A DNA stretch of 64,000 bases from Candidatus Sulfomarinibacteraceae bacterium (GTDB lineage Bacteria; Acidobacteriota; Thermoanaerobaculia; Thermoanaerobaculales; Sulfomarinibacteraceae), in contig CAWCLO010000001.1 in the NCBI GenBank assembly GCA_963796455.1, forward strand, positions 1,184,001 through 1,248,000, in the 5' to 3' direction. The position numbers and the translations under genes were made by a program. Positions 6,502 through 62,535 of this stretch are shown here, piece after piece. The notes beneath the pieces were generated by a model. The model ran no database searches. It worked only from the letters and a program-made list of their open reading frames with translations, and was not told the DNA's origin. Positions within the stretch are counted from its first letter, which is position 1, and the number at the start of each line of letters is the position of its first letter.

Positions 6502-6620
6502 CCGAACCAGGACGACAGATGGCACCGGGGGTGGATGGGCAAAGCACTGCTCGGCATCCTCGCTATCGCTATCGAACGGCTGTTGTGGAAACCTTTCCTG
6601 AATCGGAATGTCGCCTCCTG

Positions 6621-6741
6621 ATGTCATCCTGAGCGGAGCCCCCACCTGGGCGTAGTCGAAGGATCTATGAGACGGACCGCGACCCCCGTCAGCCGCAGAT
6701 CCTTCGACTGCGCGCCAAAGGCGCTTCGCTCAGGATGACAT
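6621..6741. repeat. REP/MITE-like palindromic element, copy 1
   Basis: Terminal IR ATGTCATCCTGAGCG/CGCTCAGGATGACAT with inner IR AGTCGAAGGATCT/AGATCCTTCGACT. Confidence 0.9.
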
Positions 6742-6930
6742 ATTGAAAAGGCCCACCGATTCAGTTTCGGATGAGACGAAAGGAGAACGAGCGTCGACAA
6801 CGGAGAAGGGCAGACGTAACGATCGCTCTCTGCTCTCGGAATCGCTATCGCTCATCGCACGGCTGCGGTGGATACTGCTCCTGCATGGGAGAAAGCGGCA
6901 AGGGTACCGTACCTGCTGCTCGTTCGTGCT

Positions 6931-7074
6931 CCTCTGCTCCTCTGCTCCTCTGCTCCTCTGCTCCTCTGCTCCTCTGCTCCTCTGCTCCTCTGCTCCTCTG
7001 CTCCTCTGCTCCTCTGCTCCTCTGCTCCTCTGCTCCTCTGCTCCTCTGCTCCTCTGCTCCTCTGCTCCTCTGCT
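6931..7074 (+). repeat. Tandem array (CCTCTGCT)x18
   Basis: 144 nt of perfect 8-mers, counted directly. Confidence 0.97.
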
Positions 7075-7086
7075 ACGATCCCCTCG

Positions 7087-7827
7087 ATGGACACCTGGAT
7101 CCTTCCCCTCCTGGCTGTGGCCGGCGTCGCAGTCGGGTTTCTCAACGTGACGGCAGGGGGCGGCTCGCTCATTTCGATGCCGCTCCTGATCTTCTTCGGT
7201 CTCGAACCGGCCATGGCCAACGGCACCAACCGGGTCGCCATCCTGATCCAGAACATCACGGCGGTCTCGAGCTTCAAGAATCTCGGTTACGCCGAGTGGC
7301 GACTCAGCCTGGGTCTCGCGCTGTGTACCATTCCCGGTGCCGTGGCCGGCGCATTCGCCGCGATCGTTGTGGATCCAGAGCTCTTCAAACGAATTCTCGG
7401 TATTGTTCTGGTCGCCTCGGTCATCCTCATTCTGAGAAAAAAATCGCTCTCCGGAAATGAAGGAGAACGCAAGGCTCATCCACTTCAGGCACATCTCGCG
7501 ATGGTTGCTGTCGGTTTTTATGGAGGTTTCATCCAGGCCGGGGTCGGCTTCATTATCATGCCGGTGCTCTACGGTCTGCTCAACCTCGACCTGGTCAGGG
7601 TCAACATGCACAAAGTCTTCATCATCGGCATCTATACCATCCCCGCCCTGATCGTCTTTGCAGCCAAGGGCCAGGTGTGGTGGGTCGGCGGAGCGGCCCT
7701 TGCCGTCGGCAATGCCTTCGGAGCGTGGATCGCCACTCGTGTCACCGTTTCCCGGGGTGAAAAAGTCATCCGAGTGGTATTCATCGCGTCCGCCATCACG
7801 ATGGGTATCAAATTGATCTTGAGTTAG
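7087..7827 (+). CDS. TauE/SafE (TSUP) family membrane transporter
   Basis: GFLNVTAGGGSLISMP, ANGTNRVAIL, GFYGGFIQAGVG. Start set after the repeat array. Confidence 0.85.
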   Translation: MDTWILPLLAVAGVAVGFLNVTAGGGSLISMPLLIFFGLEPAMANGTNRVAILIQNITAVSSFKNLGYAEWRLSLGLALCTIPGAVAGAFAAIVVDPELFKRILGIVLVASVILILRKKSLSGNEGERKAHPLQAHLAMVAVGFYGGFIQAGVGFIIMPVLYGLLNLDLVRVNMHKVFIIGIYTIPALIVFAAKGQVWWVGGAALAVGNAFGAWIATRVTVSRGEKVIRVVFIASAITMGIKLILS

Positions 7828-10549: not shown

Positions 10550-10593
10550 ATGTCATCCTGAGCGAAGGAGCTTCGCGACCGAGTCGAAGGATC
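10550..10593 (+). repeat. Half copy of the REP-like element
   Basis: ATGTCATCCTGAGCG...AGTCGAAGGATC, with no right arm. Confidence 0.8.
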
Positions 10594-21324: not shown

Positions 21325-21700
21325 GGATTGCAGCGGCAGCGGCAGTGTCCAGCGGCAGCGACAGGGCTCAGGGCCAGAGAACAGCGATCAGTGTTCTGCG
21401 GCAGAGATCAGGGGCAGCGATCAGGTACAGTGACGGCGCGATCACCTCCGGGTCGGTTAACAGAACGAACAGCCGTTGTGGTGTAGGAGTCTCGCCTGCG
21501 CAAGGTGCGGCCGAGACGGCCGCACCACAAAGGCCGGAACCAAAAATATTGCTGCTGTTGGCTGTCCCGGCCGCTGATCGCTGACCCTGAAGACTGAACG
21601 CTAGCGCTGACTCCTGTTCGCTGTCGCTGAATTCTGTCGCTGTCCCCGATCGCTGCCCGAGACACTGTCTTGGACGAAGGTGATCCAGCATCCTGAATCC
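21325..21700 (-). mobile_element. Gene-less derivative (copy C, inverted) of the four-helix-bundle element
   Basis: Reverse strand reads ggatgctggatcaccttcgtccaagacagtgtctcgggcagcg...caggagtcagc...cgacccggaggtg...ctgatcgctg...gaacactgatcgctgttc...gctgcaat, colinear with 48385-49131. Confidence 0.75.
21476..21530. repeat. REP doublet nested inside copy C
   Basis: TTGTGGTGtaggaGTCTCGcCtGC ... GCGGCCGAGACGGCCGCACCACAA imperfect inverted repeat. Confidence 0.7.
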
Positions 21701-21841: not shown

Positions 21842-23893
21842 ATGAGCGACCCAGTCCTGACTGTCGAACTGACCGATCTCCCCGAGCCCAAGCCCTTCAA
21901 ACCCGGCATCCGTCGGGCACCCAATCGCGGCTATGACCTCAACCGCAACGACACCATGGTCGCCCTCAAAAACGCCCTCCGATACATACCAGAGGAGCAC
22001 CACTCAACCGTCGCGCCGGAGTTCCTCGAGGAGCTGCTGACGATGGGCCGGATCTACGGCTATCGCTACCGCCCGGCAGAGGAGCTTTCGGGCAAGCCCA
22101 TCGACTCATACATCGGCCGGATTACGGAAGCCAAGGCGATGCAGGTGATGATCGACAACAACCTCGATTTCGATGTTGCCCTGTATCCCTACGAACTGGT
22201 GACGTACGGCGAAAGCGGACAGGTCTGCCAGAACTGGATGCAGTACCGCCTGATCAAGCGCTATCTCGAGATGATGGATCACGAACAGACCCTGGTCGTG
22301 AGCTCGGGACACCCTCTCGGTCTTTTTCCATCGAGACCCGAAGCTCCTCGCGCAATCATTACCAACGGGTTGATGGTCGGAATGTTCGACACGCCCGAGG
22401 ATTTCCAACGGCTTGCAGCCCTGGGTTGCGTAAACTACGGACAGATGACCGCCGGCGGATGGATGTACATCGGCCCCCAGGGCATCGTCCACGGCACCTA
22501 CATCACGCTCTTGAACGCCGGCCGCTTGTATCTGGGCGTGCCCGACGATGGGAATCTGGCGGGCAAGACCTTCATCACGTCGGGGCTCGGCGGCATGTCC
22601 GGAGCCCAACCAAAAGCCCTCGAGATCGCCGGCGGCGCCGGTATCGTGGCCGAGGTCGACCCCTCGAGAGTCGAGACCAGGCACTCCCAGGGATGGGTGT
22701 CAAAGGTCACCGACGACCTGGCGACCTCGGTCCGCTGGATGCTCGAAGGGGCGGAAAAGGGCGAGGCCGTTTCTATTGCCTACGAAGGAAATATCGTCGA
22801 TCTCCTCGAATACCTCGATGCCAATGACATTTCGGTCGATCTCTACTCCGATCAGACCTCGTGCCACGTCCCCTACGACGGCGGCTACACACCGGCCGGT
22901 CTCAGTTTTGACGAGGGCCGGGAGATGTTGGCAGCGGATCGTGATGATTTCAAACGCCTGGTGGACGAAAGCCTGATCCGTCATTTCAAGGTACTCAAAC
23001 GGCTGACCGACAAAGGGGCCCGGTTCTGGGACTACGGCAATGCCTTCATGAAGGCGGTCTTTGACGCAGGTGCGCCCGAAATCGCAACCAATGGTGCCGA
23101 TACCTCAGAGGGCTTCATCTGGCCCTCCTATGTCGAGGACATCATGGGACCCATGTGTTTTGACTATGGCTATGGGCCGTTTCGCTGGGTCTGTCTGTCG
23201 GGGAAGGCTGCTGACCTTTCGAAGACCGACGCTGCAGCGATGGGCTGCATCGATCCGTCTCGACGCGGCCAGGATCGAGACAACTGGCAGTGGATCAAGG
23301 ACGCCGAAAAAAACGCTCTTGTCGTCGGAACCCAGGCTCGGATTCTCTACGCCGATGCCGAGGGACGAACCGCGATTGCGCGCGAGTTCAACCGCATGGT
23401 TCGCGCCGGTGAGATCGGTCCGGTGATGATGGGTCGTGACCACCACGATACCGGAGGAACGGATTCACCCTATCGCGAGACCGCAAATATCTATGACGGT
23501 TCGAACACGGTCGCCGACATGGCCCACCAGTGCTGGGCCGGCAACGCGGCGAGGGGGATGACGATGGCAGTCCTCTCCAACGGCGGTGGGGTCGGTACCG
23601 GCAAGGCGATCAACGGAGGCTTCGGTCTTGTACTCGATGGTTCTGAACGCGTCGAACGAATCCTCGACACTGCGCTCGAGTGGGACGCCATGGGGGGCGT
23701 CGCCCGCCGTGCCTGGGCCCGGAACGAAAACGCCATCGAGACGGTCGACATCTGGAACCGTGCCAACGCCGCGCGTGGGCATGTGACAGTGCCGAGAGTT
23801 GCAGCCGACGATCTCGTCGAAGGACTGGTTGACGGGAGCCTGACGCAGGATTCAGGATTCAGGATTCAGGATGCTGGATCACTTTTGTCCTAG
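21842..23893 (+). CDS. hutU: Urocanate hydratase, long (~680 aa) form
   Basis: YPYELVTYG, YGQMTAGGWMYIGPQGIVHGT, GLGGMSGAQP, SDQTSCH, GPFRWVC, GRDHHD. Confidence 0.93.
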   Translation: MSDPVLTVELTDLPEPKPFKPGIRRAPNRGYDLNRNDTMVALKNALRYIPEEHHSTVAPEFLEELLTMGRIYGYRYRPAEELSGKPIDSYIGRITEAKAMQVMIDNNLDFDVALYPYELVTYGESGQVCQNWMQYRLIKRYLEMMDHEQTLVVSSGHPLGLFPSRPEAPRAIITNGLMVGMFDTPEDFQRLAALGCVNYGQMTAGGWMYIGPQGIVHGTYITLLNAGRLYLGVPDDGNLAGKTFITSGLGGMSGAQPKALEIAGGAGIVAEVDPSRVETRHSQGWVSKVTDDLATSVRWMLEGAEKGEAVSIAYEGNIVDLLEYLDANDISVDLYSDQTSCHVPYDGGYTPAGLSFDEGREMLAADRDDFKRLVDESLIRHFKVLKRLTDKGARFWDYGNAFMKAVFDAGAPEIATNGADTSEGFIWPSYVEDIMGPMCFDYGYGPFRWVCLSGKAADLSKTDAAAMGCIDPSRRGQDRDNWQWIKDAEKNALVVGTQARILYADAEGRTAIAREFNRMVRAGEIGPVMMGRDHHDTGGTDSPYRETANIYDGSNTVADMAHQCWAGNAARGMTMAVLSNGGGVGTGKAINGGFGLVLDGSERVERILDTALEWDAMGGVARRAWARNENAIETVDIWNRANAARGHVTVPRVAADDLVEGLVDGSLTQDSGFRIQDAGSLLS

Positions 23894-24234
23894 ACAGAGG
23901 GTCGGACAGCAATCAGGGGCAGCGACGGGGAACGGCGGACGGCGTCAGCGATCAGTCGCCAGCGGCAGCGACCAGCGGCCAGGGCAGCGTCAGCGTCAGC
24001 GTCAGCGTCAGCGAACAGCCCTTACTTGGAACGACCCGGAGGTGGCCACATCGTCGCCTGTACTCCTGACCGCTGACGCTGGACACTGTCGCTGTCGCTG
24101 CAATTCGGGATCGAGAACGGGTACGAGACAAGCGCGAACCGGATATGCCAAAAGCCAACCCGTAAACCACGTGATGTCAGGTGGGAAACTTCAGGTGACG
24201 ATCTGTTTTGGACAGCGGTAATGCTGGATGCTGG
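23846..24234 (+). mobile_element. Gene-less derivative (copy B) of the four-helix-bundle element
   Basis: Left anchor ggatcacttttgtcctagacagag, CAGCG arm, gaacgacccggaggtggccaca. 24135-24232 matches 49155-49252 at 88/98 nt by hand alignment. Confidence 0.85.
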
Positions 24235-24287: not shown

Positions 24288-24331
24288 ATCTGCGTTCATC
24301 TGCGTTCATCTGCGTGATCTGCGGTTTCTCC
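24288..24331 (-). repeat. 9-mer array (ACGCAGATG/ACGCAGATC) with GAGAAACCGCAGAT anchor
   Basis: Same module at 10490-10515 (+), 58891-58917 (-) and 62380-62402 (+). Confidence 0.85.
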
Positions 24332-24421
24332 GGTTTCTCCCTCCAGGCAACGCCGTTCCGATTCCTGCAGCCAGCATCTGCTTCTGAGACGATCCCTGCC
24401 TGTAAGCGGTAAACTGGATTG

Positions 24422-43009: not shown

Positions 43010-43083
43010 CTGTTGCCGTTATCGAAGGGGAAAGGGAGAACCACCCGACACTGATTTCGCAATTTGGGGAGTGTCGCTTCCCG

Positions 43084-43202
43084 ATGTCATCCTGAGCGGA
43101 GCCCTGCAGGGCGTAGTCGAAGGATCTATGGCGCACACGGGAGAGACCCACGACCGCAGATCCTTCGACTTCGCGCCGAATGCGCTTCGCTCAGGATGAC
43201 AT
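43084..43202. repeat. REP/MITE-like palindromic element, copy 2
   Basis: Same terminal and inner IRs as 6621-6741. Confidence 0.9.
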
Positions 43203-43217
43203 CTTGAACGACAGTTC

Positions 43218-43472
43218 CGATCCCGTTCCCGAAAGGGAGAAAGGGAGAAAGGGAGAAAGGGAGAAAGGGAGAAAGGGAAAACCGTACCGGAAGCGATCCA
43301 CGTGATAAGGGGCGGGTCTCCTCTGCTCCTCTGCTCCTCTGCTCCTCTGCTCCTCTGCTCCTCTGCTCCTCTGCTCCTCTGCTCCTCTGCTCCTCTGCTC
43401 CTCTGCTCCTCTGCTCCTCTGCTCCTCTGCCCCTCTGCTCCTCTGCCCCTCTGCCCTCTCTGCCCCTCTGCC
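43218..43472 (+). repeat. About 5 AAAGGGAGA units, spacer, TGATAAGGG anchor, then about 19 CCTCTGCY units
   Basis: Seen directly; 13 perfect 8-mers at 43320-43423, then CCTCTGCC variants. Confidence 0.95.
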
Positions 43473-44765: not shown

Positions 44766-46520
44766 TTATGCGACCAGCAACTCCTCGCCCGCCTTCACCA
44801 ACCGCGCATAGGGACCATCGACCGCGAGGAGTTCGTTGTGGCTTCCCTGCTCGACGATACGGCCGCGATCGAGCACCACGATACGATCGGCCCGTTCGAC
44901 GGTCGACAGCCGGTGGGCGATGACCAGCACCGTCTTCCGTTCGAAGATCCTCGCCAGCGCATCCTGGATCAGCTGCTCGGTAAGGGAGTCAATCGAGGCG
45001 GTGGCTTCGTCGAGCACCACCACCGAGAGCTCGTGGGCCATGGCGCGGGCGAAGGTCAGCAGTTGGCCCTCTCCGACCGAAAGATCGGCGCCGCGTTCGC
45101 GTAGGACATGATCCCACCCAACCCTTTCCACCACGCGGTCTGCATGGACCAGGACCGCCGCCGCCTCGGTGCTCGCCGCCTCGATCTCTGGATTGCCGAG
45201 GTCGATATTGAAGCGCACGGTCTCGGAAAAGAGCTGCGGATCCTGGCGGACTCCTGCGATGTGGCGTCGGACATCCCGCGGCCGCAGTTCTCGGAGTTCT
45301 TCGCCATCGAGGGTGATGCTGCCGCGATATCCGGTGTAGGAGGTATCGAGGATCCGCGACAGGGTGGTCTTACCCGATCCGGTGGCGCCGACCAAGGCAA
45401 CCACCTCGCCGGGGCTGATGTCGAGATCGATCGCATGCAGGACGTCCTCAGCGTCCTCGCGATAGCTGAAGCTGACATCCCGCATGACGATTTTGCCGAC
45501 AACCTCCGCTTTCGCGATGCCTTCATCGGAAACCGTCTGCGTGACATCGAGCAGATCGAGAATCTTCTCGACCGCAGCCGCGCCCCGTTGAAGCACCGCA
45601 ACCCGCGAGGACAACTCGCGCAGCGGCCGGAAAAGCCGGTCGAGGTATTCGATGAAGGCCACCAACAACCCGGCGCTGAGCGGTTCCGTCAAAGGCACCG
45701 GGAACCCCATCCTGGAGGCGAGGCCCGAGCCGTACCACAACATGACTGCGACGCAGATCGAGGCGGCACCATCGACCATGGCATACATGAAAGCGTCGTA
45801 GAGGTTGGATCGGGTGGTGGCGCGGCGATAACGATTGTTGAGCGGATCGAAGAGTGCTTCGCTTTCGTTTTCGTTGCTGAAGAGCTGCACCACCTCGACC
45901 CCATCGACCCGCTCGGCAACGAATGCGTTGACTGCCGCCAGGGCCTCACGCACCTCCAGATACAACACCCGCAAACGACGCCGAATAAATTCAAGGATCG
46001 CGAGCATCGGCGGTGCGGCCAACAACAACACGATGGTCAGTCCGGCATCGAGCCAAAACATGGCCGCCAGCGTGCCGGCGATCATCAACAGATCGAGGAT
46101 GATGTTGATCAGCCCCGATGAAAAGGCCTCACCCAGCGCATCCACATCCGAGGTCGCACGGGTCATCAACTTGCCCGCCGGTTGCCCGTCGAGATAGCTC
46201 TGCCTCAAACCCAAGATTTTTTGGTAAATTGCGGACCGGAGTCTCACGATACTGCGCTGTCCTCCCCACGCGAGTGCGAGGACGTAACCTGCTTCCAGAA
46301 TATAGGCGAAAAAGACGGCTCCGAGATAAAAGAGGGCCACCGTCATCAGACCCTCGCCCACTCCCGGAACCACGTGGTCATCGATCACTGTTTTGAGCAG
46401 CCACGGCTGAACAAGACTCAGGGCCGCCGTCGCCGGCGTCAGCAGAAGCGCGAGGGCAAAGGTCCAGGCATCGGGCCTCAGATAGGGCCACAACCGACGA
46501 AACATCGAGGTCTGCTTCAT
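44766..46520 (-). CDS. ABC exporter, fused permease/ATPase
   Basis: TMD plus GATGSGKT, degenerate signature LSVGEGQ, VLDEAT, IAHRLST. Confidence 0.92.
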   Translation of the reverse strand: MKQTSMFRRLWPYLRPDAWTFALALLLTPATAALSLVQPWLLKTVIDDHVVPGVGEGLMTVALFYLGAVFFAYILEAGYVLALAWGGQRSIVRLRSAIYQKILGLRQSYLDGQPAGKLMTRATSDVDALGEAFSSGLINIILDLLMIAGTLAAMFWLDAGLTIVLLLAAPPMLAILEFIRRRLRVLYLEVREALAAVNAFVAERVDGVEVVQLFSNENESEALFDPLNNRYRRATTRSNLYDAFMYAMVDGAASICVAVMLWYGSGLASRMGFPVPLTEPLSAGLLVAFIEYLDRLFRPLRELSSRVAVLQRGAAAVEKILDLLDVTQTVSDEGIAKAEVVGKIVMRDVSFSYREDAEDVLHAIDLDISPGEVVALVGATGSGKTTLSRILDTSYTGYRGSITLDGEELRELRPRDVRRHIAGVRQDPQLFSETVRFNIDLGNPEIEAASTEAAAVLVHADRVVERVGWDHVLRERGADLSVGEGQLLTFARAMAHELSVVVLDEATASIDSLTEQLIQDALARIFERKTVLVIAHRLSTVERADRIVVLDRGRIVEQGSHNELLAVDGPYARLVKAGEELLVA

Positions 46521-48346
46521 GAGGCAGCCTCTTCCTGTTCGGCGGCACGCTGGCTCTGGACCAACCAACTGTCGCGGTAAATACCCGGCCGCAAAACCAA
46601 TTCGTTGTGACGACCGGTGTCCACCAGCTTGCCGCCATCAAGCACCAGGACCGTGTCGCAATGACGCAGGGCCGACAGGCGATGGCTGGCGATCAAAACC
46701 GTCGGCGCCTCCGGCCGGCCAGCAAGTTCGGAGATTGCCTCGACGAGCTGAGTTTCGGTGTGGTGGTCCACCGCCGACAGAACATCGTCGAGGATCAGCA
46801 GATCACCGCTGCGATAGAGCCCGCGAGCGAGCGCAACTCGTTGCCGCTGACCACCCGAAAGCATGATCCCCCGTTCGCCAACTACGGTCTCCATCCCCGA
46901 AGGGAGTGCTTCGAGATCACTTTCGAGCGCCGCCATCGAGACCGCACGGCGAACCGTTTGCGGGTCGGCACCGGCCGCGAGGGCGACGTTGTTCTCAATG
47001 GTGTCGGAAAAGAGAAACGGACGTTGCGGCACCATGGCCACGCGCTCTCTCCAACTTGTCAGGTCAAGGGTGGTGATATCGGTTCCGTCGATGATCACCG
47101 TGCCAGCCGGAGGGTTGTAGAGCCTTGCCAACAAGCGCAGCAACGTGCTCTTGCCACTGCCGGTACGGCCGAAAAGACCAACCACCGAGCCTCCATCGAT
47201 CACCGCCGTGAGCCCCTTGAGCACCATCCGATCCGGCTCGTCGGGGTAGGCGAAATGGAGGTTCTCGAGTTCAATCGTGGGCCCGCGACCAGCCTCTGAG
47301 ACGATCGGATCCTGGCCTTCCGGTCGTTCGACCGGAGCATCGACGAGTTCAAAAATCCTCTCAAGGGCGGCACGACCCCGTTGCACGACCGACATCATCC
47401 AGCCCATTGATCGTAAGGGCGGCAGAAAAACTGTGAGCAGGGCGCTGAAGGCCGCCAGCTCGCCGACGGTCAGAGCGCCTCGCAATACCATCGGCCCGCC
47501 AAAGGCGATCAAGGCAAACATGGCGACGCCACCCGACAGAACGAGCAACGGCAGTGCTGTGGATCGAATCAGAGCCAGCCGCATGCCCGTCTTCAACCAG
47601 TCGAGGTTGCGTTCTTCGAATCGCTCGATCATGGCTTCCTCGGCCACAAAGCCCTGGATTGCCGCCATTCCCTGGAGACTGCCGAGCACGTGTTCGGAGA
47701 TCTCCCCGAGCTGTTCCTGGCTGCGCCGCGCGAGATGAAACAGGCGGCGAATGCCGAATTGGACCAGCCCGGCTCCAATCACCACCGGCAGCAGAACCAT
47801 CAAAGTCAACTGTGGCGACAGCGACACCATCTTCCACCCGGTGAGCGCAATGGCCAGGGTGACGTTGATGACCTGAAGACCGGCAAACCCCACCAGAGTC
47901 CGAACCCAGGTGATGTCGTTCGATGCCCGGCTGACGATATCGCCCCTTTTGTGAGTGGCGTAAAAACCCGGTTGTAGTTGCATGAGATGGGCGAAGAGAT
48001 CCTTGCGAAGGTGGTATTCGACGTGTCTGCCCGGGTTGAATATCAGGATCCGCGACAGGCTCCGCACCACGATCACCGCCACACCCATGATGGCGATCAC
48101 GGCAACAAAATGCCCCAGCGGTTGGCCGGCGCGCAGGGCGTCGATGGCGTGGCCGATCTGCACCGGGATACTGACGGCGATGTAGTTGGTCACCCAAAGA
48201 AAAACGGCACCGGCGGCATAGCTCCAGCGATAGCGCCATGCGTAGACCTTGAGCAGCCGGAGGATCGGGTTCCCCACGACCCTGTTCCTGTTATTTGATT
48301 CTTCGTGCAAACCCACGCTCCGTTTAACCGACGGATATCCTCTCAT
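46517..48346 (-). CDS. ABC exporter, fused permease/ATPase (heterodimer partner); start may be 48277
   Basis: GRTGSGKS, LSGGQRQR, degenerate Walker B ILDD; ATGA overlap with the next gene. Confidence 0.9.
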   Translation of the reverse strand: MRGYPSVKRSVGLHEESNNRNRVVGNPILRLLKVYAWRYRWSYAAGAVFLWVTNYIAVSIPVQIGHAIDALRAGQPLGHFVAVIAIMGVAVIVVRSLSRILIFNPGRHVEYHLRKDLFAHLMQLQPGFYATHKRGDIVSRASNDITWVRTLVGFAGLQVINVTLAIALTGWKMVSLSPQLTLMVLLPVVIGAGLVQFGIRRLFHLARRSQEQLGEISEHVLGSLQGMAAIQGFVAEEAMIERFEERNLDWLKTGMRLALIRSTALPLLVLSGGVAMFALIAFGGPMVLRGALTVGELAAFSALLTVFLPPLRSMGWMMSVVQRGRAALERIFELVDAPVERPEGQDPIVSEAGRGPTIELENLHFAYPDEPDRMVLKGLTAVIDGGSVVGLFGRTGSGKSTLLRLLARLYNPPAGTVIIDGTDITTLDLTSWRERVAMVPQRPFLFSDTIENNVALAAGADPQTVRRAVSMAALESDLEALPSGMETVVGERGIMLSGGQRQRVALARGLYRSGDLLILDDVLSAVDHHTETQLVEAISELAGRPEAPTVLIASHRLSALRHCDTVLVLDGGKLVDTGRHNELVLRPGIYRDSWLVQSQRAAEQEEAAS

Positions 48347-48367: not shown

Positions 48368-49252
48368 CTGGATGCTGGATGCTGGATGCTGGATCAACTT
48401 TGTCCAAGACAGAGTCTCGGACAGCGACCGGGGACAGGGACGGGGAACGGCGTACAGCGTCAGGGAACAGGAGTCAGCTATCAGCGGCAGCGGCAGAGTC
48501 CAGCGGCAGCGACAGCGAACAGCGTTCAGCTCTTCGGATTCAATAGCCGCCAGGTCATGGCACGGACCTGATCGAAGGCCTTCATCGCTTCACTGGCTCC
48601 ATTCGGGCTGATCGCCCCGGCGTGGGCGAGGAGCTTCAGGTGGCTGTCGGCCTCTTTGGCCGAGGCGTAGGCGATTCGCCAGTGGTTCAATCGGTCTCTT
48701 CCGAAACGGCCGTGCCCTTCTGCCAGGTTCGCAGGGACCGAACTTGCCGACCGGATTACCTGATCGGCAATAGACTTCAGCGGAGCGGGAACCCTCATCA
48801 CGAGCTTGATCGCGATTCCTGCTGCTTCGAGGGCTTTTGAGTGGGCAACGAGGTTGGCGTTCGTGGCGGCTGAAGACATGGTCACCTCCGGGTCGTTCAT
48901 GCCCATATCCACAAGCCGGTGTGGTGGCCGATGTCAAGGATGCCCTGCACCCTGCCTGTCCTTGACATCGGCCGCCCACCGGCTACCCCTTGCTCTGAAC
49001 GACCCGGAGGTGGCCACAGCACCGACTGGACTCCTGATCGCTGCCGCTGAACACTGATCGCTGTTCCCTGTCGCTGTCCCTGTTCGCTGTTGCCTGTCGC
49101 TGCCGCTGCACGCTGTCGCTGCCGCTGTAATTCGGACGCGGACACGGGCAACAGCGAACCGGATATGCCAAAAACCAACCCGAAAACCACGTGCTGTCAG
49201 GCGGGAAACTTAAGGTGGCGACCTTTTTTGGACAGCAGTGATGCTGGATGCT
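48368..49252. mobile_element. Complete four-helix-bundle element (copy A): GATGCTG ends, TGTCCAA.A.AG subterminal IRs, CAGCG-rich inverted arms, single ORF
   Basis: Defined by homology to three gene-less copies in this window; mobility is inferred, not shown. Confidence 0.75.
48526..48879 (-). CDS. Four-helix bundle protein (23S rRNA IVS protein / Avd-like family), 117 aa
   Basis: IADQVIRSASSVPANLAEGHGR and IAYASAKE match the family motif DQ..R...S...N.AEG..R; GGAGGTG SD before ATG 48879. Confidence 0.9.
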   Translation of the reverse strand: MSSAATNANLVAHSKALEAAGIAIKLVMRVPAPLKSIADQVIRSASSVPANLAEGHGRFGRDRLNHWRIAYASAKEADSHLKLLAHAGAISPNGASEAMKAFDQVRAMTWRLLNPKS

Positions 49253-55864: not shown

Positions 55865-55947
55865 CTGCCACCCACATCGCACAGGGCAGAGGGGAAAAGG
55901 AGAACCGTTCGGCACCGGTTTCGCACGCATGCGAATGTCGCCTCCCG

Positions 55948-56065
55948 ATGTCATCCTGAGCGGAGCCCCACAGGGCGTAGTCGAAGGATCTATGTGATGG
56001 ACCGAAGCCTCCTTGTCCGCAGATCCTTCGACTCGGCCGTCGGACGGCCTCCCTCAGGATGACAT
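55948..56065. repeat. REP/MITE-like palindromic element, copy 3
   Basis: ATGTCATCCTGAG...AGTCGAAGGATCT...AGATCCTTCGACT...CTCAGGATGACAT. Confidence 0.9.
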
Positions 56066-56230
56066 CTTGAACGATAGTTCCGCTCCCGATCCCGTTCCCG
56101 ATCCCGAATGGGGCTGACCGTACCCCAGGGTTGAGGGAGCGTTCACTATCGCTATCGGAATCGCTATCGAACGGCTGCTATGGATACCGACCTCGTAAGA
56201 GAGACAGGGCCTCACCGGTTCGGTCGATCA

Positions 56231-58860: not shown

Positions 58861-58917
58861 CGCAGATAGGCACAGACAAGACGGAAAACAATCTGCGTTC
58901 ATCTGCGTGATCTGCGG
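58861..58917. repeat. Inward-facing CGCAGAT 9-mer units
   Basis: cgcagataggcacagac ... atctgcgttcatctgcgtgatctgcgg. Confidence 0.75.
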
Positions 58918-59009
58918 TGACTCCGCGCGATGTGCCCCACACCCTTAACTAGATGGTTCGTTCCTGCTCATCATTTGTTATGCTTTCCGACAATGAAGAT
59001 GGTTGGATA

Positions 59010-62119: not shown

Positions 62120-62370
62120 GATGCTGGATGCTGAAGCAACCTTGCCCAAGACAGAGTCTCGGATAGCGTGCAGGGACAGCTACGGCGAGCGGCAGACAGC
62201 GAGCAAGAGTCAGCGGCAGCGAGCAGCACTTACATTTTCAGGTTCAACAACCGCCATTTCATGGCACCTGATCGCCGCCCCTGAACACTGACCGCTGAAT
62301 ACTGATCACTGTTCTCCGTCGCTGTTTCCTGTCTCTGCTCGCTGTCGCCGGGGCTGCAATTCGGACGCGG
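62120..62370 (+). mobile_element. Internally deleted derivative (copy D) of the four-helix-bundle element
   Basis: gatgctggatgctg..ttgcccaagacagagtctcgga left anchor, CAGCG arm, gene remnant, right arm ending gcaattcggacgcgg. Confidence 0.82.
62230..62265 (-). pseudogene. 3' remnant of a four-helix-bundle gene
   Basis: Encodes AMKWRLLNLKM*, versus AMTWRLLNPKS* at 48526-48561 (8/11 identical), at the equivalent position in the element. Confidence 0.8.
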
Positions 62371-62535
62371 AGAAACCGCAGATCACGCAGATGAACTCAG
62401 ATAGAGACAACGCCTGGGTGTCACGGCGAATCGCGTAGGCGACCCAAATGGGTGTGTCCGAATTCCTCATTTACGGGGCAGACTGGCTTGCCGCGGCGTA
62501 GCTGCAAGCGAAGCCGGGTGATACCATCCATCGCC

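Follow-up and report, generated by a model that had tools for sequence, protein, structure and literature searches.

Here we describe an 846-bp element, positions 48395-49240 of a 64,000-nucleotide window (the whole stretch of DNA analysed) from a Candidatus Sulfomarinibacteraceae genome, which is probably a transposase-less mobile insertion cassette (MIC) built on IS4-family ends and likely inserted in trans by an IS4-type DDE transposase, with about 135 copies in 5 Mb. The 18-bp terminal inverted repeats and the fixed 9-bp duplication at a palindromic target, both shared with intact IS4-family insertion sequences, argue for DDE cut-and-paste movement by a trans-supplied transposase. The only ORF in the element with a family match is a gene for a 117-aa PF05635 protein. 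To our knowledge, this family, the 'S23p / 23S rRNA intervening-sequence protein', has gone without a known function for about 30 years and, save for its relative Avd, has been treated only as a curiosity of rRNA genes. Here an S23p-type gene, in the same stem-enclosed layout, is found in a transposon with defined ends, target and transposase family. The old question of how such genes spread is now directly testable, and the element with its leader helices, an IS4-type transposase and RNase III are concrete parts for experiments. A search of the openly accessible literature returned no paper describing such an element.

Borders, ends and target of the element

The element lies within the ABC-hpt spacer. 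The original prediction had drawn a repeat-bounded unit of about 0.9 kb in which one minus-strand ORF of 117 aa is accompanied by CAGCG-rich and CGCTG-rich arms, a structured leader and a tail of unique sequence. All of these parts are present and homology among the genomic copies ends sharply at the borders given above. The unit is indeed bounded by repeats, but its limits had to be redrawn, since the GATGCTG found at both ends belongs to the 9-bp target duplication. Nor are the (GATGCTG)n heptamers part of the element, as had been proposed; they form a host array, already present at the empty orthologous site in relatives, which served as the target. The 'anchor' and 'CTTTTTTGGACA' proved to be the two terminal inverted repeats.

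The target duplication, ATGCTGGAT, occupies 48386-48394, inside the host (GGATGCT)n array, and is repeated identically at 49241-49249. The 18-bp inverted repeats have the pattern CACTSYTGTCCAARACAG. With the element read on the minus strand, as its gene is, the repeat at the 3' end of the gene (CAACTTTGTCCAAGACAG on the plus strand) and about 12 nt of subterminal 'anchor' span 48395-48424 and resemble the left end of IS4-type insertion sequences, which in the IS of G247 is CACTCTTGTCCAAGACAAGGTCTCAG. The repeat at the 5' end of the gene (49223-49240, minus strand) reads CACTGCTGTCCAAAAAAG as its reverse complement, compared with CACTGCTGTCCAAAACAG for the right inverted repeat of the IS L052. 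Next to it, the 'tail' (49135-49222, minus strand) is likely what remains of the right subterminal sequence of its IS4-type parent, judging from its alignment to the right end of an IS in G017.

An inverted-repeat consensus built from 39 of the 65 5' ends and 52 of the 65 3' ends of gene-bearing copies matched 270 sites genome-wide, against about 0 for a reversed-pattern control. Seventy-four inverted-repeat pairs are spaced 250-1000 bp apart in the genome. A 9-bp duplication is perfect in 21 of these and has at most one mismatch in 39, where shuffled pairing gives 2.6 and 8.9, respectively; only 9 bp works, as lengths of 5-8 and 10-12 bp among the same 74 pairs produced 0-1 perfect duplications. 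The target is palindromic, ATSCWGSAT, with the composition AT(90%/82%)-S-C(79%)-W-G(77%)-S-AT(87%/95%). This target recurs every 7 nt within the host (GGATGCT)n spacer arrays, and 28 of the 74 insertions have period-7 flanks, compared with 0.25% of random 28-mers. The heptamer arrays that are common in these genomes are, in other words, preferred landing sites for an insertion sequence.

Presence/absence variation, which the original prediction had called for, was evident at the ABC-hpt spacer: it is free of the element in all 18 hpt-carrying genus relatives compared, measuring 88-300 nt against 1127 nt here, and the host heptamer array already occupies the empty orthologous site.

IS4-family relatives and the search for a transposase

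Intact IS4-family insertion sequences with matching ends were found in other Acidobacteriota, namely L052 (1361 bp) and, as three 1358-bp copies sharing a genome, L053-L055, all with perfect 9-bp duplications. Their inverted repeats deviate from the CACTSYTGTCCAARACAG pattern by 0 and 2 mismatches in L052 and by 1 and 1 in L053-L055, and their transposases (396-412 aa) score 265-267 bits on the IS4-family profile NF033592, for which the cut-off is 115. A decayed copy, L036, retains the perfect 9-bp duplication ATCCATGAT, and perfect 9-bp duplications also flank many more distant IS copies. Within the same genus, an intact 1411-bp copy in G017 encodes a transposase 48% identical to that of L053 and has a right end with 0 mismatches to the CACTSYTGTCCAARACAG pattern. 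The element tail scores 37 in its alignment to this right end, where none of 300 shuffles exceeded 34 (z 4.8). Tail similarity to more distant IS copies was not significant, except for L057 (z 3.4), and left subterminal similarity between element and IS was not significant past the inverted repeat (z <=1.7). As given in Table 1 of PMC2266710, subgroup IS4Sa has CA------T ends, 8-10-bp repeats and lengths of 1150-1750 bp. The parent IS falls within this description, with its 9-bp duplication, CACTGCTGT... ends and length of 1358-1411 bp.

PMC2266710, with reference to Chen et al. 1999 and De Palmenaer et al. 2004, also names the MICs, for example MIC231 of Bacillus cereus, which has the ends of IS231, an IS4-family member. 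Like them, the element has IS4-family inverted repeats matching those of an IS, a passenger gene in place of the transposase, the duplication length of its parent IS, a mobilisation in trans that is presumed, and shorter MITE-like derivatives alongside. In contrast to them, it has a very high copy number, 5 Mb containing 65 copies with the gene and about as many without it, and its passenger is always the same gene, under purifying selection and furnished with its own hairpin arms and structured leader. Further differences are that the cognate IS was not found in this genome and that the same cargo occurs in a second end type in sister species.

The expectation that the element itself would encode neither a transposase nor an integrase nor a reverse transcriptase was borne out, as none was found in or near it, and a search of the whole assembly (10 contigs, 90.5% complete) for reverse transcriptases with PF00078 gave 0 hits. 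Searches of the same assembly with the NF033592 profile and with the L053 transposase also gave 0 hits. A matching transposase was found neither here nor in G006 or G008, two relatives that have the same IS4-type ends, and this is a point against the explanation that we favor. Among 11 inverted-repeat pairs lying 1-20 kb apart, considered as possible autonomous copies, the three inspected contain ordinary genes, and in a self-comparison of the genome the long repeats are an IS91-type element (three copies), the tuf duplication and a few others. Six intact IS4-type transposase loci in G102, G148, G159 and G248, as well as three partial ones, were set aside as partners since the inverted repeat is absent from their flanks. 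The IS1380-family elements of G006 and G004 were rejected because their real ends differ (CTAGCCCGCATATCTCAC...). An 18-mer at the start of their transposase gene differs from the inverted repeat at 2 positions.

Copies, gene and predicted RNA structure

Genome-wide, the gene for the 117-aa PF05635 protein is present in 65 near-full copies, with the ORF intact in 58 and broken in 7; the gene-bearing form is the largest class of copies, and the gene-less copies are together about as numerous as these 65. ORF fragments and short derivatives number 44 each. These numbers agree with two expectations of the original prediction, that the element is selfish and dispersed, occurring in both full and MITE-like forms, and that its flanks accompany other four-helix-bundle genes. 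The MITE-like forms are internally deleted derivatives: recurrent deletion classes are seen among the 44 inverted-repeat pairs of 300-760 bp, one such class, with about 245-704 deleted, comprising 18 copies. Like MITEs, the gene-less copies are short, non-coding and multicopy, and they bear the inverted repeats and target duplication typical of a transposon family.

Three gene-less relatives had been proposed within the window. All three are related to the element, but only one is complete, a 341-bp derivative at 23880-24220 (minus strand) with both inverted repeats, the duplication ATGCTGGAT and a deletion from the leader to the end of the ORF (class 'del about 245-704'). The other two are truncated and lack the tail and the 5' inverted repeat. 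The copy at 62137-62362 (minus strand, right border approximate) retains both arms, together with the 3' inverted repeat and roughly 13 codons from the end of the gene; another dispersed repeat stands in place of its tail and 5' inverted repeat, and its internal junction, read straight from the sequence, is at a CCTGATCG microhomology. The copy at 21325-21682, in the opposite orientation (plus strand), has kept both arms and the 3' inverted repeat, as well as one half of leader helix 1, and its inner hairpin is a different one (inverted-repeat pairs I2, I3 and I5). About a third of the gene-bearing copies in the genome likewise have no recognisable 5' inverted repeat.

Nearest-neighbour ORF distances among the genomic copies have a median of 6.8%, with a single pair at 0.8%, which indicates that most copies are old. 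In a poorly resolved tree of the 5' 250 nt, 7 class-A copies cluster while the rest scatter, suggesting that gene-less deletion derivatives have also multiplied and that the gene is therefore not strictly needed in cis. Orientation showed no bias relative to neighbouring genes, with 9 sense and 15 antisense copies in co-directional spacers as counted from gene calls made by a rough codon-position GC rule.

Copy number ranges from 0 to 83 among species of the one genus, and the ORF is intact in 20 of 20 copies sampled from 14 other species. The inner cassette of arms, leader and gene also exists outside the IS4-type ends. A second, unrelated end pair, GGYTCATCCGGRATT, encloses this leader and ORF in sister species, with a duplication of about 8 bp; matches to these ends number 35 in G014, 51 in G008 and 22 in G005, with only 2 in this genome and 1 in G006. 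In G003, G013 and G020 the cassette has no recognisable ends, and only leader and ORF align between copies.

The gene occupies 48526-48879 on the minus strand, stop codon included, and its product has the RxxxSxxxNxxE motif as defined in PMC3936711. Its assignment to the Avd/23S-IVS-like family in the original prediction was upheld by matches to PF05635 (E 1.8e-14) and TIGR02436 (E 2.3e-15). The predicted fold (pLDDT 93) is a four-helix bundle like those of Avd (4DWL, 8UB7) and the pentameric XCC0516 (2GSC), with Foldseek TM values of 0.82 to 2GSC, 0.82-0.83 to 2RLD and 0.78-0.85 to Avd. The rmsd is 1.4-1.9 A across Avd and XCC0516 and 1.7-1.9 A to Avd 4DWL/8UB7. Sequence identity to Avd, in contrast, is about 10%. 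For a diversity-generating retroelement the Avd-type fold is thus there, as a prediction, and the associated reverse transcriptase was not found in the genome. PF05635 itself is termed Avd-like in PMC10053308.

By comparison of the copies, the gene is under strong purifying selection: pairwise dN/dS is 0.157 at a dS of 0.36, 58 of the 65 ORFs are intact, and nucleotide diversity at the three codon positions is 0.065, 0.048 and 0.219. For changes private to one copy, dN/dS is 0.58.

On either side of the gene and its leader lie degenerate arrays of 6-7-nt units, both on the minus strand: arm 3 at 48425-48525 (CAGCG on the plus strand) and the complementary arm 5 at 49030-49134 (CGCTG on the plus strand). 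The arms are about 110 nt each and their duplex is predicted at about -111 kcal/mol, compared with -70 for shuffled arms; the RNA of the whole element has a fold z of -11.5. Copy-specific covariation of the arms was not detected, with -111.5 kcal/mol within copies and -112.2 between them, so that these values give no sign of selection on the arm duplex. The leader (48875-49020, minus strand) is predicted to fold into two stacked helices, of 24 bp (helix 1) and 25 bp (helix 2). Helix 1 joins about 49020-48996 to 48899-48875 and buries the Shine-Dalgarno GGAGGTG and the ATG, while helix 2 joins about 48984-48959 to 48940-48914. Covariation substantiates this structure: across 51 pairs, 96.3% of cells are paired, and compensatory changes occur at 15 pairs against 4.4 in shuffles, a count that 0 of 500 shuffles reached. 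Nucleotide diversity in the leader is 0.086, compared with 0.219 at third codon positions. No Rfam family matched the element or the four other PF05635 loci, and only two sub-threshold microRNA-like hairpin hits were returned.

A scan revealed no sigma-70-type promoter or terminator inside the element; one promoter-like site was noted just outside it, at 49292-49265. No sequencing run contained half or more of the words of the stretch. Contigs from two metatranscriptome runs of a single study span the ORF and leader in related copies with 85-99% likeness; such contigs carry no strand or ends and are not assignable to this organism, and presence in an RNA library is not proof of transcription.

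The arrangement recalls the ORF-bearing intervening sequences of 23S rRNA (S23p ORF), which PMC4990558 describes for Coxiella burnetii, Leptospira and Salmonella, with a 28-bp stem cut by RNase III in Coxiella. The same paper mentions older, unproven ideas that intervening sequences are remnants of transposition, or mobile elements whose ORF serves mobility. Common to both is a PF05635 ORF between long complementary termini predicted to form a stem. The element differs in that it is in the ABC-hpt spacer, with bona fide transposon ends and duplications, and in that its arms are arrays of 6-7-nt repeats of about 110 nt rather than a short perfect stem. The sole 23S gene here, C10:140644-143654, is uninterrupted: its 3011 nt, set against a model of 2925 positions, contain no ORF-sized insert.

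Mode of movement and retention of the gene

Why cargo moved in trans should keep its gene, in 65 gene-bearing copies under purifying selection, is an evolutionary puzzle. One answer, which we consider unlikely, is that the four-helix-bundle genes are a host-beneficial multicopy family, such as a nucleic-acid chaperone or a defence-related factor, kept by selection at the level of the cell, with the IS4 ends as a former vehicle. The low dN/dS in spite of no transposase having been found would fit such a role, as would the intact ORFs in all 20 copies from other species, the same leader and gene without IS4-type ends in sister species, and PF05635 genes reported inside cas loci in PMC3936711. 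However, with 58 near-identical intact copies, selection on each should be very weak, and the ratio for private changes is relaxed. Decay is also ongoing, as the broken ORFs, fragments and short derivatives attest, and the spread in copy number within the genus, with insertion sites unshared, is typical of selfish elements.

The remaining alternatives concern how the element moves. It is quite improbable, in our judgment, that the inner cassette is itself mobile through its own hairpin or short-repeat-array mechanism, with the IS4 ends as a secondary, lineage-specific shell. Such a mechanism would accommodate the second end pair with its different duplication, the cassettes without recognisable ends, and the three other PF05635 genes of this genome, each of which lies in the loop of inverted 6-8-nt arrays. 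Yet every copy here with both ends readable has IS4-type repeats and the 9-bp duplication, no enzyme for another route was found (PF00078 gave no hits, and the six Y1/HUH genes of the genome show no link to the element), and the 'naked' copies may be old cassettes whose ends have decayed or gone unrecognised. Farther still from likelihood is the route suggested in the original prediction, movement via structured RNA or single-stranded DNA with a host or trans-acting HUH/RAYT nuclease or reverse transcriptase, for which we see almost no chance. The extreme predicted structure of the element RNA, the predicted Avd fold of the protein and the six Y1/HUH transposase genes would speak for it. HUH or IS200/IS605-type transposition, though, makes no target duplication, and the element, with its 18-bp inverted repeats, fixed 9-bp duplication, palindromic target and ends of an IS4-family IS, is not a member of the REP/RAYT or IS200/IS605 types; a reverse transcriptase was likewise not found in the genome.

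A broader reading, which we offer as doubtful, would make the gene-in-a-hairpin cassette the real unit of selection, a selfish cargo repeatedly boxed into the ends of unrelated insertion sequences, IS4-type here and, in sister species, the second end type with its duplication of about 8 bp. Taken jointly with this, and just as tentatively, the protein might act by preference on RNA or DNA from its own encoding copy and so promote the spread or retention of that copy; the ORF-bearing 23S rRNA intervening sequences might be the same cassette landed in rDNA; and the inverted 6-8-nt spacer arrays of the lineage might be the habitat or the remains of the cassette.

Under the favored explanation, a transposase-less MIC moved by an IS4-type transposase, the protein would be a nucleic-acid-binding oligomer, as predicted, with five subunits expected by analogy with 2GSC and Avd, and its benefit would go mainly to the copy encoding it. 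This last is the least certain step and one that we purely infer; such a benefit would account both for the gene-bearing form being the largest class and for the ORF being kept intact. The long arm duplex may be cut by RNase III, by analogy with the 23S rRNA intervening sequences. By tying up the ribosome-binding site and start codon with an anti-Shine-Dalgarno stretch from upstream, helix 1 would leave read-through transcripts untranslated, as in the fold-back inhibition of IS10. Halling and Kleckner in 1982 and Davis, Simons and Kleckner in 1985 reportedly described, for IS10/Tn10, 9-bp duplications at a symmetric hotspot as well as the fold-back inhibition of read-through translation. The element resembles this IS4-family transposon in its 9-bp duplication, its palindromic 9-bp consensus and an upstream segment able to pair with the ribosome-binding site of its gene. 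It differs from IS10 in that the gene so protected is not a transposase, in the 24-bp helix stacked on a 25-bp helix, and in an end signature that fits subgroup IS4Sa.

The cassette, its copies and their targets

The element proper, 846 bp at 48395-49240, is flanked by ATGCTGGAT at 48386-48394 and again at 49241-49249. Its 117-aa gene (48526-48879, minus strand, ribosome-binding site GGAGGTG) is the sole short gene in 48368-49252, and two family models recognize its product, PF05635 at E 1.8e-14 and TIGR02436, "four helix bundle protein", at E 2.3e-15. The original prediction of a repeat-bounded unit holds, and the unit is far from a chance repeat: BLASTN against its own assembly (G000; 5.02 Mb in 10 contigs, 90.5% complete) found more than 60 near-full-length copies of 81-89% identity on all large contigs, together with many partial ones, and homology between copies falls away abruptly near 48368-48400 and 49240-49252. 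The (GATGCTG)n array, which had been counted as part of the unit, belongs instead to the host target. Gene-level BLASTN identified 65 near-full copies and 44 fragments, and PF05635 matches across the genome number 70 by Pfam search.

The copies have transposon ends. Read in gene orientation, they start with CACTGCTGTCCAAAACAGATCGTCA in 39 of 65 cases and finish with GAGACTCTGTCTTGGACAAGAGTG in 52 of 65, and the terminal inverted repeats are 18 bp long (consensus CACTSYTGTCCAARACAG). Allowing up to 3 mismatches, the genome contains 270 inverted-repeat matches, which form 74 facing pairs at 250-1000 bp, ~30 of them of 760-890 bp and 44 shorter. The 9 bases outside both ends are a direct repeat, perfect in 21 of the 74 pairs and with at most one mismatch in 39, as against 2.6 and 8.9 in a shuffled-pairing control; other duplication lengths (5-8 and 10-12) gave 0-1 perfect cases. 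A target preference is also evident, as the duplicated site has the palindromic consensus AT-S-C-W-G-S-AT (most commonly ATGCTGGAT or ATGCAGGAT) and strict period-7 flanks accompany 28 of the 74 insertions, compared with 0.25% of random genomic 28-mers. Among the 26 gene-bearing copies in which no 5' inverted repeat was detected, about eight retain part of the tail, the right subterminal stretch, and most others stop at or near the repeat-array arm. ORFs differ from their nearest neighbors by 6.8% at the median and by 0.8% at the least, and most insertions are old.

Of 64 copies with the 5' part still present, 31 have their full length. Deletions run from ~245, in the leader, to ~704, at the ORF end, in 18 copies, from ~264/272 to ~633-654 in five and from 273 to 529 in three. 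Since 7 copies of the ~245-704 class group together in a tree of the common 5' part, with the rest scattered, some deleted forms seem to have multiplied without the gene, recurrent deletion being a possible alternative. A separate dispersed repeat of 35 nt, ATCTGCGTTCATCTGCGTGATCTGCGG or its complement, occurs at 24298-24332, 58891-58927 and 62366-62402; one copy stands in for the missing 5' end of a truncated element at 62137-62362, and the repeat also comes after several other element copies in the genome.

Insertion polymorphism was seen at the locus itself. The divergent ABC-transporter/hpt pair is kept in all 18 genus relatives where hpt was found; seven more genomes, several of them incomplete, gave no hpt match. 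A comparison of orthologous spacers, proposed with the original prediction, was run at this site and found all 18 relatives empty, with spacers of 88-300 nt against 1127 nt in G000. The empty spacers already hold two inverted short-repeat arrays, whose unit varies by species (GGATGCT, GGATGTT, GATGCAA, AAACGTTC or TATCGC), so the arrays are older than the insertion, and in G000 the element landed in the left one. Across these spacers (L017-L031; 48370-48394 and 49351-49402 in the window) a hairpin-forming layout is conserved and the unit sequence is not. Just beyond the 5' end of the element, upstream, the minus strand has a promoter-like site at 49292-49265 (TTGACA-16-GATGAT), directed through the element to the ABC gene at 46517-48346; the insertion may have put 846 bp between this gene and its promoter. 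By rough gene calls, copies are enriched between convergent genes (25/58) and depleted between divergent ones (9/58), and by the same rough calls there is no orientation bias relative to neighbors in co-directional spacers (9 sense, 15 antisense).

Kinship with an IS4-type insertion sequence

No transposase gene was found in or adjoining any copy, nor between distant inverted-repeat pairs. In G000, PF01609 detected a single weak IS5/IS1182-like gene and NF033592 (IS4 family) gave no matches. The inverted-repeat pattern is present in 21 of 301 class genomes sampled, with a reversed-pattern control of ~0, and between one such pair (L036), 1302 bp apart, lies an IS4-type transposase gene in decay; the 9-bp duplication of this pair, ATCCATGAT, is perfect. 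A public-genome search with a fragment of this transposase recovered intact copies of the cognate IS, one of 1361 bp (L052) and three of 1358 bp in a single genome (L053-L055), all with inverted repeats at 0-2 mismatches to the pattern, perfect 9-bp duplications and transposases of 396-412 aa that score 265-267 bits with NF033592 (cut-off 115).

Within the genus of the window, G017 carries an intact 1411-bp relative. On the right, its inverted repeat equals CACTGCTGTCCAAAACAG exactly, and its subterminal region aligns with the 88-nt tail of the element at a score of 37 (maximum 34 in 300 shuffles; z 4.8). Given this alignment, the "unique tail" of the original prediction is likely a remnant of the IS right end and the "anchor" the IS left end. 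Size, CA------T ends and 9-bp repeat agree with the IS4Sa subgroup as laid out in Table 1 of PMC2266710. Because it shares IS ends and a 9-bp duplication with an IS4-type IS and lacks a transposase, the element is a mobile insertion cassette (MIC) in the sense of MIC231, with short forms that resemble MITEs. G000, G006 and G008 have these ends, and in none of them was the transposase found. In two class genomes, G102 and G159 (e.g. L037-L039; G159:C18:34-51), several contigs break off 34-98 nt into an element that bears these inverted repeats, which suggests that a recently active, high-identity multicopy IS broke the assemblies. IS1380-family elements of G006 and G004 (L011:1197-1214, L010:2766-2783, L013:2719-2736) have exactly at the transposase start codon an 18-mer, TACTGTTGTCAAAGACAG, that differs from the IS4-type inverted repeat at only 2 positions; the estimated chance expectation is ~0.01-0.02 in the DNA inspected.

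The cargo appears to be older than its present IS4-type shell. Leader and gene occur in several copies in 18 of the 24 genus relatives (1-48 matches per genome), whereas the inverted repeats or tail occur only in G000, in G006, partly in G008 and in a few other genomes. In G014, G008 and G005 (e.g. the L107:497-1010 region and G008:C3:75364-76185) the same cassette lies between different inverted ends, GGYTCATCCGGRATT, which have 35, 51 and 22 matches in these genomes; G000 has 2 and G006 has 1. Cassettes with GGYTCATCCGGRATT ends sit in (AACGTTNN)n arrays with a ~8-bp duplication, read by eye in three copies. No ends were seen in G003, G013 and G020, where leader and ORF alone align between copies.

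The passenger gene, its leader and mode of movement

The gene is under purifying selection. Intact and gap-free ORFs are kept by 58 of 65 copies, diversity at codon positions 1-3 is 0.065, 0.048 and 0.219, and the mean pairwise dN of 0.057 and dS of 0.36 give a ratio of 0.157 (0.58 for copy-private changes). A sample of 20 copies from 14 further species of the genus contains intact ones only, at 72-86% identity. The AlphaFold model predicts a four-helix bundle (pLDDT 93), with XCC0516 (2GSC, TM 0.82), BT_0352 (2RLD) and Avd (4DWL, 8UB7; TM about 0.8, 10% identity) as the closest structures, and the protein has the RxxxSxxxNxxE motif that PMC3936711 notes for the PF05635 family. Across the 58 intact copies, amino-acid variation centers on residues 86-103, the helix 3-helix 4 loop and helix 4 start (forms such as ISPNGASEAM, ISRTAARDAM and VNRNGAGEAM), and also affects the last 2-3 C-terminal residues; the variants are few and turn up in different combinations, a hint that copies have recombined.

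The leader is conserved as well, with a diversity of 0.086 over the 150 nt that precede the gene, below that of third codon positions. When 20 copies representing 15 species are aligned, two stacked helices are supported: of 51 pairs (96.3% of cells paired), 15 show compensatory changes, whereas shuffles give 4.4 (none of 500 reaches 15) and slid controls 2-5. In helix 1 (24 bp), upstream CCACCTCCGGGTCGTTCA is paired with TGAACGACCCGGAGGTGACCATG, which comprises the ribosome-binding site and start codon, and one species has a double change within this helix, CCTTC/GAAGG. The arms, ~110 nt on each side, are degenerate arrays of 6-7-nt units that form a duplex of ~-111 kcal/mol versus -70 when shuffled; arms of different copies pair equally well, and no copy-specific covariation was found. 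The whole-element fold has a z of -11.5, and Rfam gave no match to the element.

Movement through RNA or ssDNA, as originally proposed, finds no backing: a genome search detected no reverse transcriptase in G000, which also sets the element apart from a component of diversity-generating retroelements, and the element does not behave as an HUH-type one. G000 has six Y1 genes. Nor is the element a 23S rRNA intervening sequence, as it lies outside rRNA and the sole 23S rRNA gene of G000 is uninterrupted. It works like a MIC, agreeing with one in every test that sequence can answer. Insertion of this MIC would be cut-and-paste, by an IS4-type DDE transposase acting in trans. By analogy with IS10, in which fold-back inhibits translation, helix 1 could prevent translation of transcripts entering from outside. 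The arm duplex might be cut by RNase III, after the manner of intervening sequences, for which PMC4990558 describes excision by RNase III in Coxiella. An oligomer of the protein might bind nucleic acid and favor its own copy; against such a benefit, gene-less copies spread too, no promoter was found inside the element and orientation is random. In the openly accessible literature that was searched, no paper tied PF05635 genes to transposon ends.

More canonical PF05635 loci and other repeats

G000 has three other PF05635 genes of a more canonical kind, with Pfam E values of 1e-20 to 3e-31. Each occupies a ~430-500-nt loop between inverted 6-8-nt arrays, and no IS4-type ends were seen at these loci. 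The arrays are GCAGAGGA/TCCTCTGC at C4:1278094 (L007:1436-2025), GGGCTATG at C1:983149 (L008:1512-2040) and ATCGCT at C10:733004 (L009:1394-1937). The octamer TCCTCTGC, the unit of the inverted arms around the first of these genes, also forms long perfect arrays of ~20-30 units in the window, at 6857-7145 and 43254-43460. A ~55-nt dispersed repeat (GATCCTTCGAC...GCTCAGGATGACAT), unrelated to the element, occurs at 6693-6747, 43154-43208 and 56017-56071 and, inverted, at 10550-10593, with adjacent conserved segments at 6606-6679, 43069-43140 and 55933-56004.
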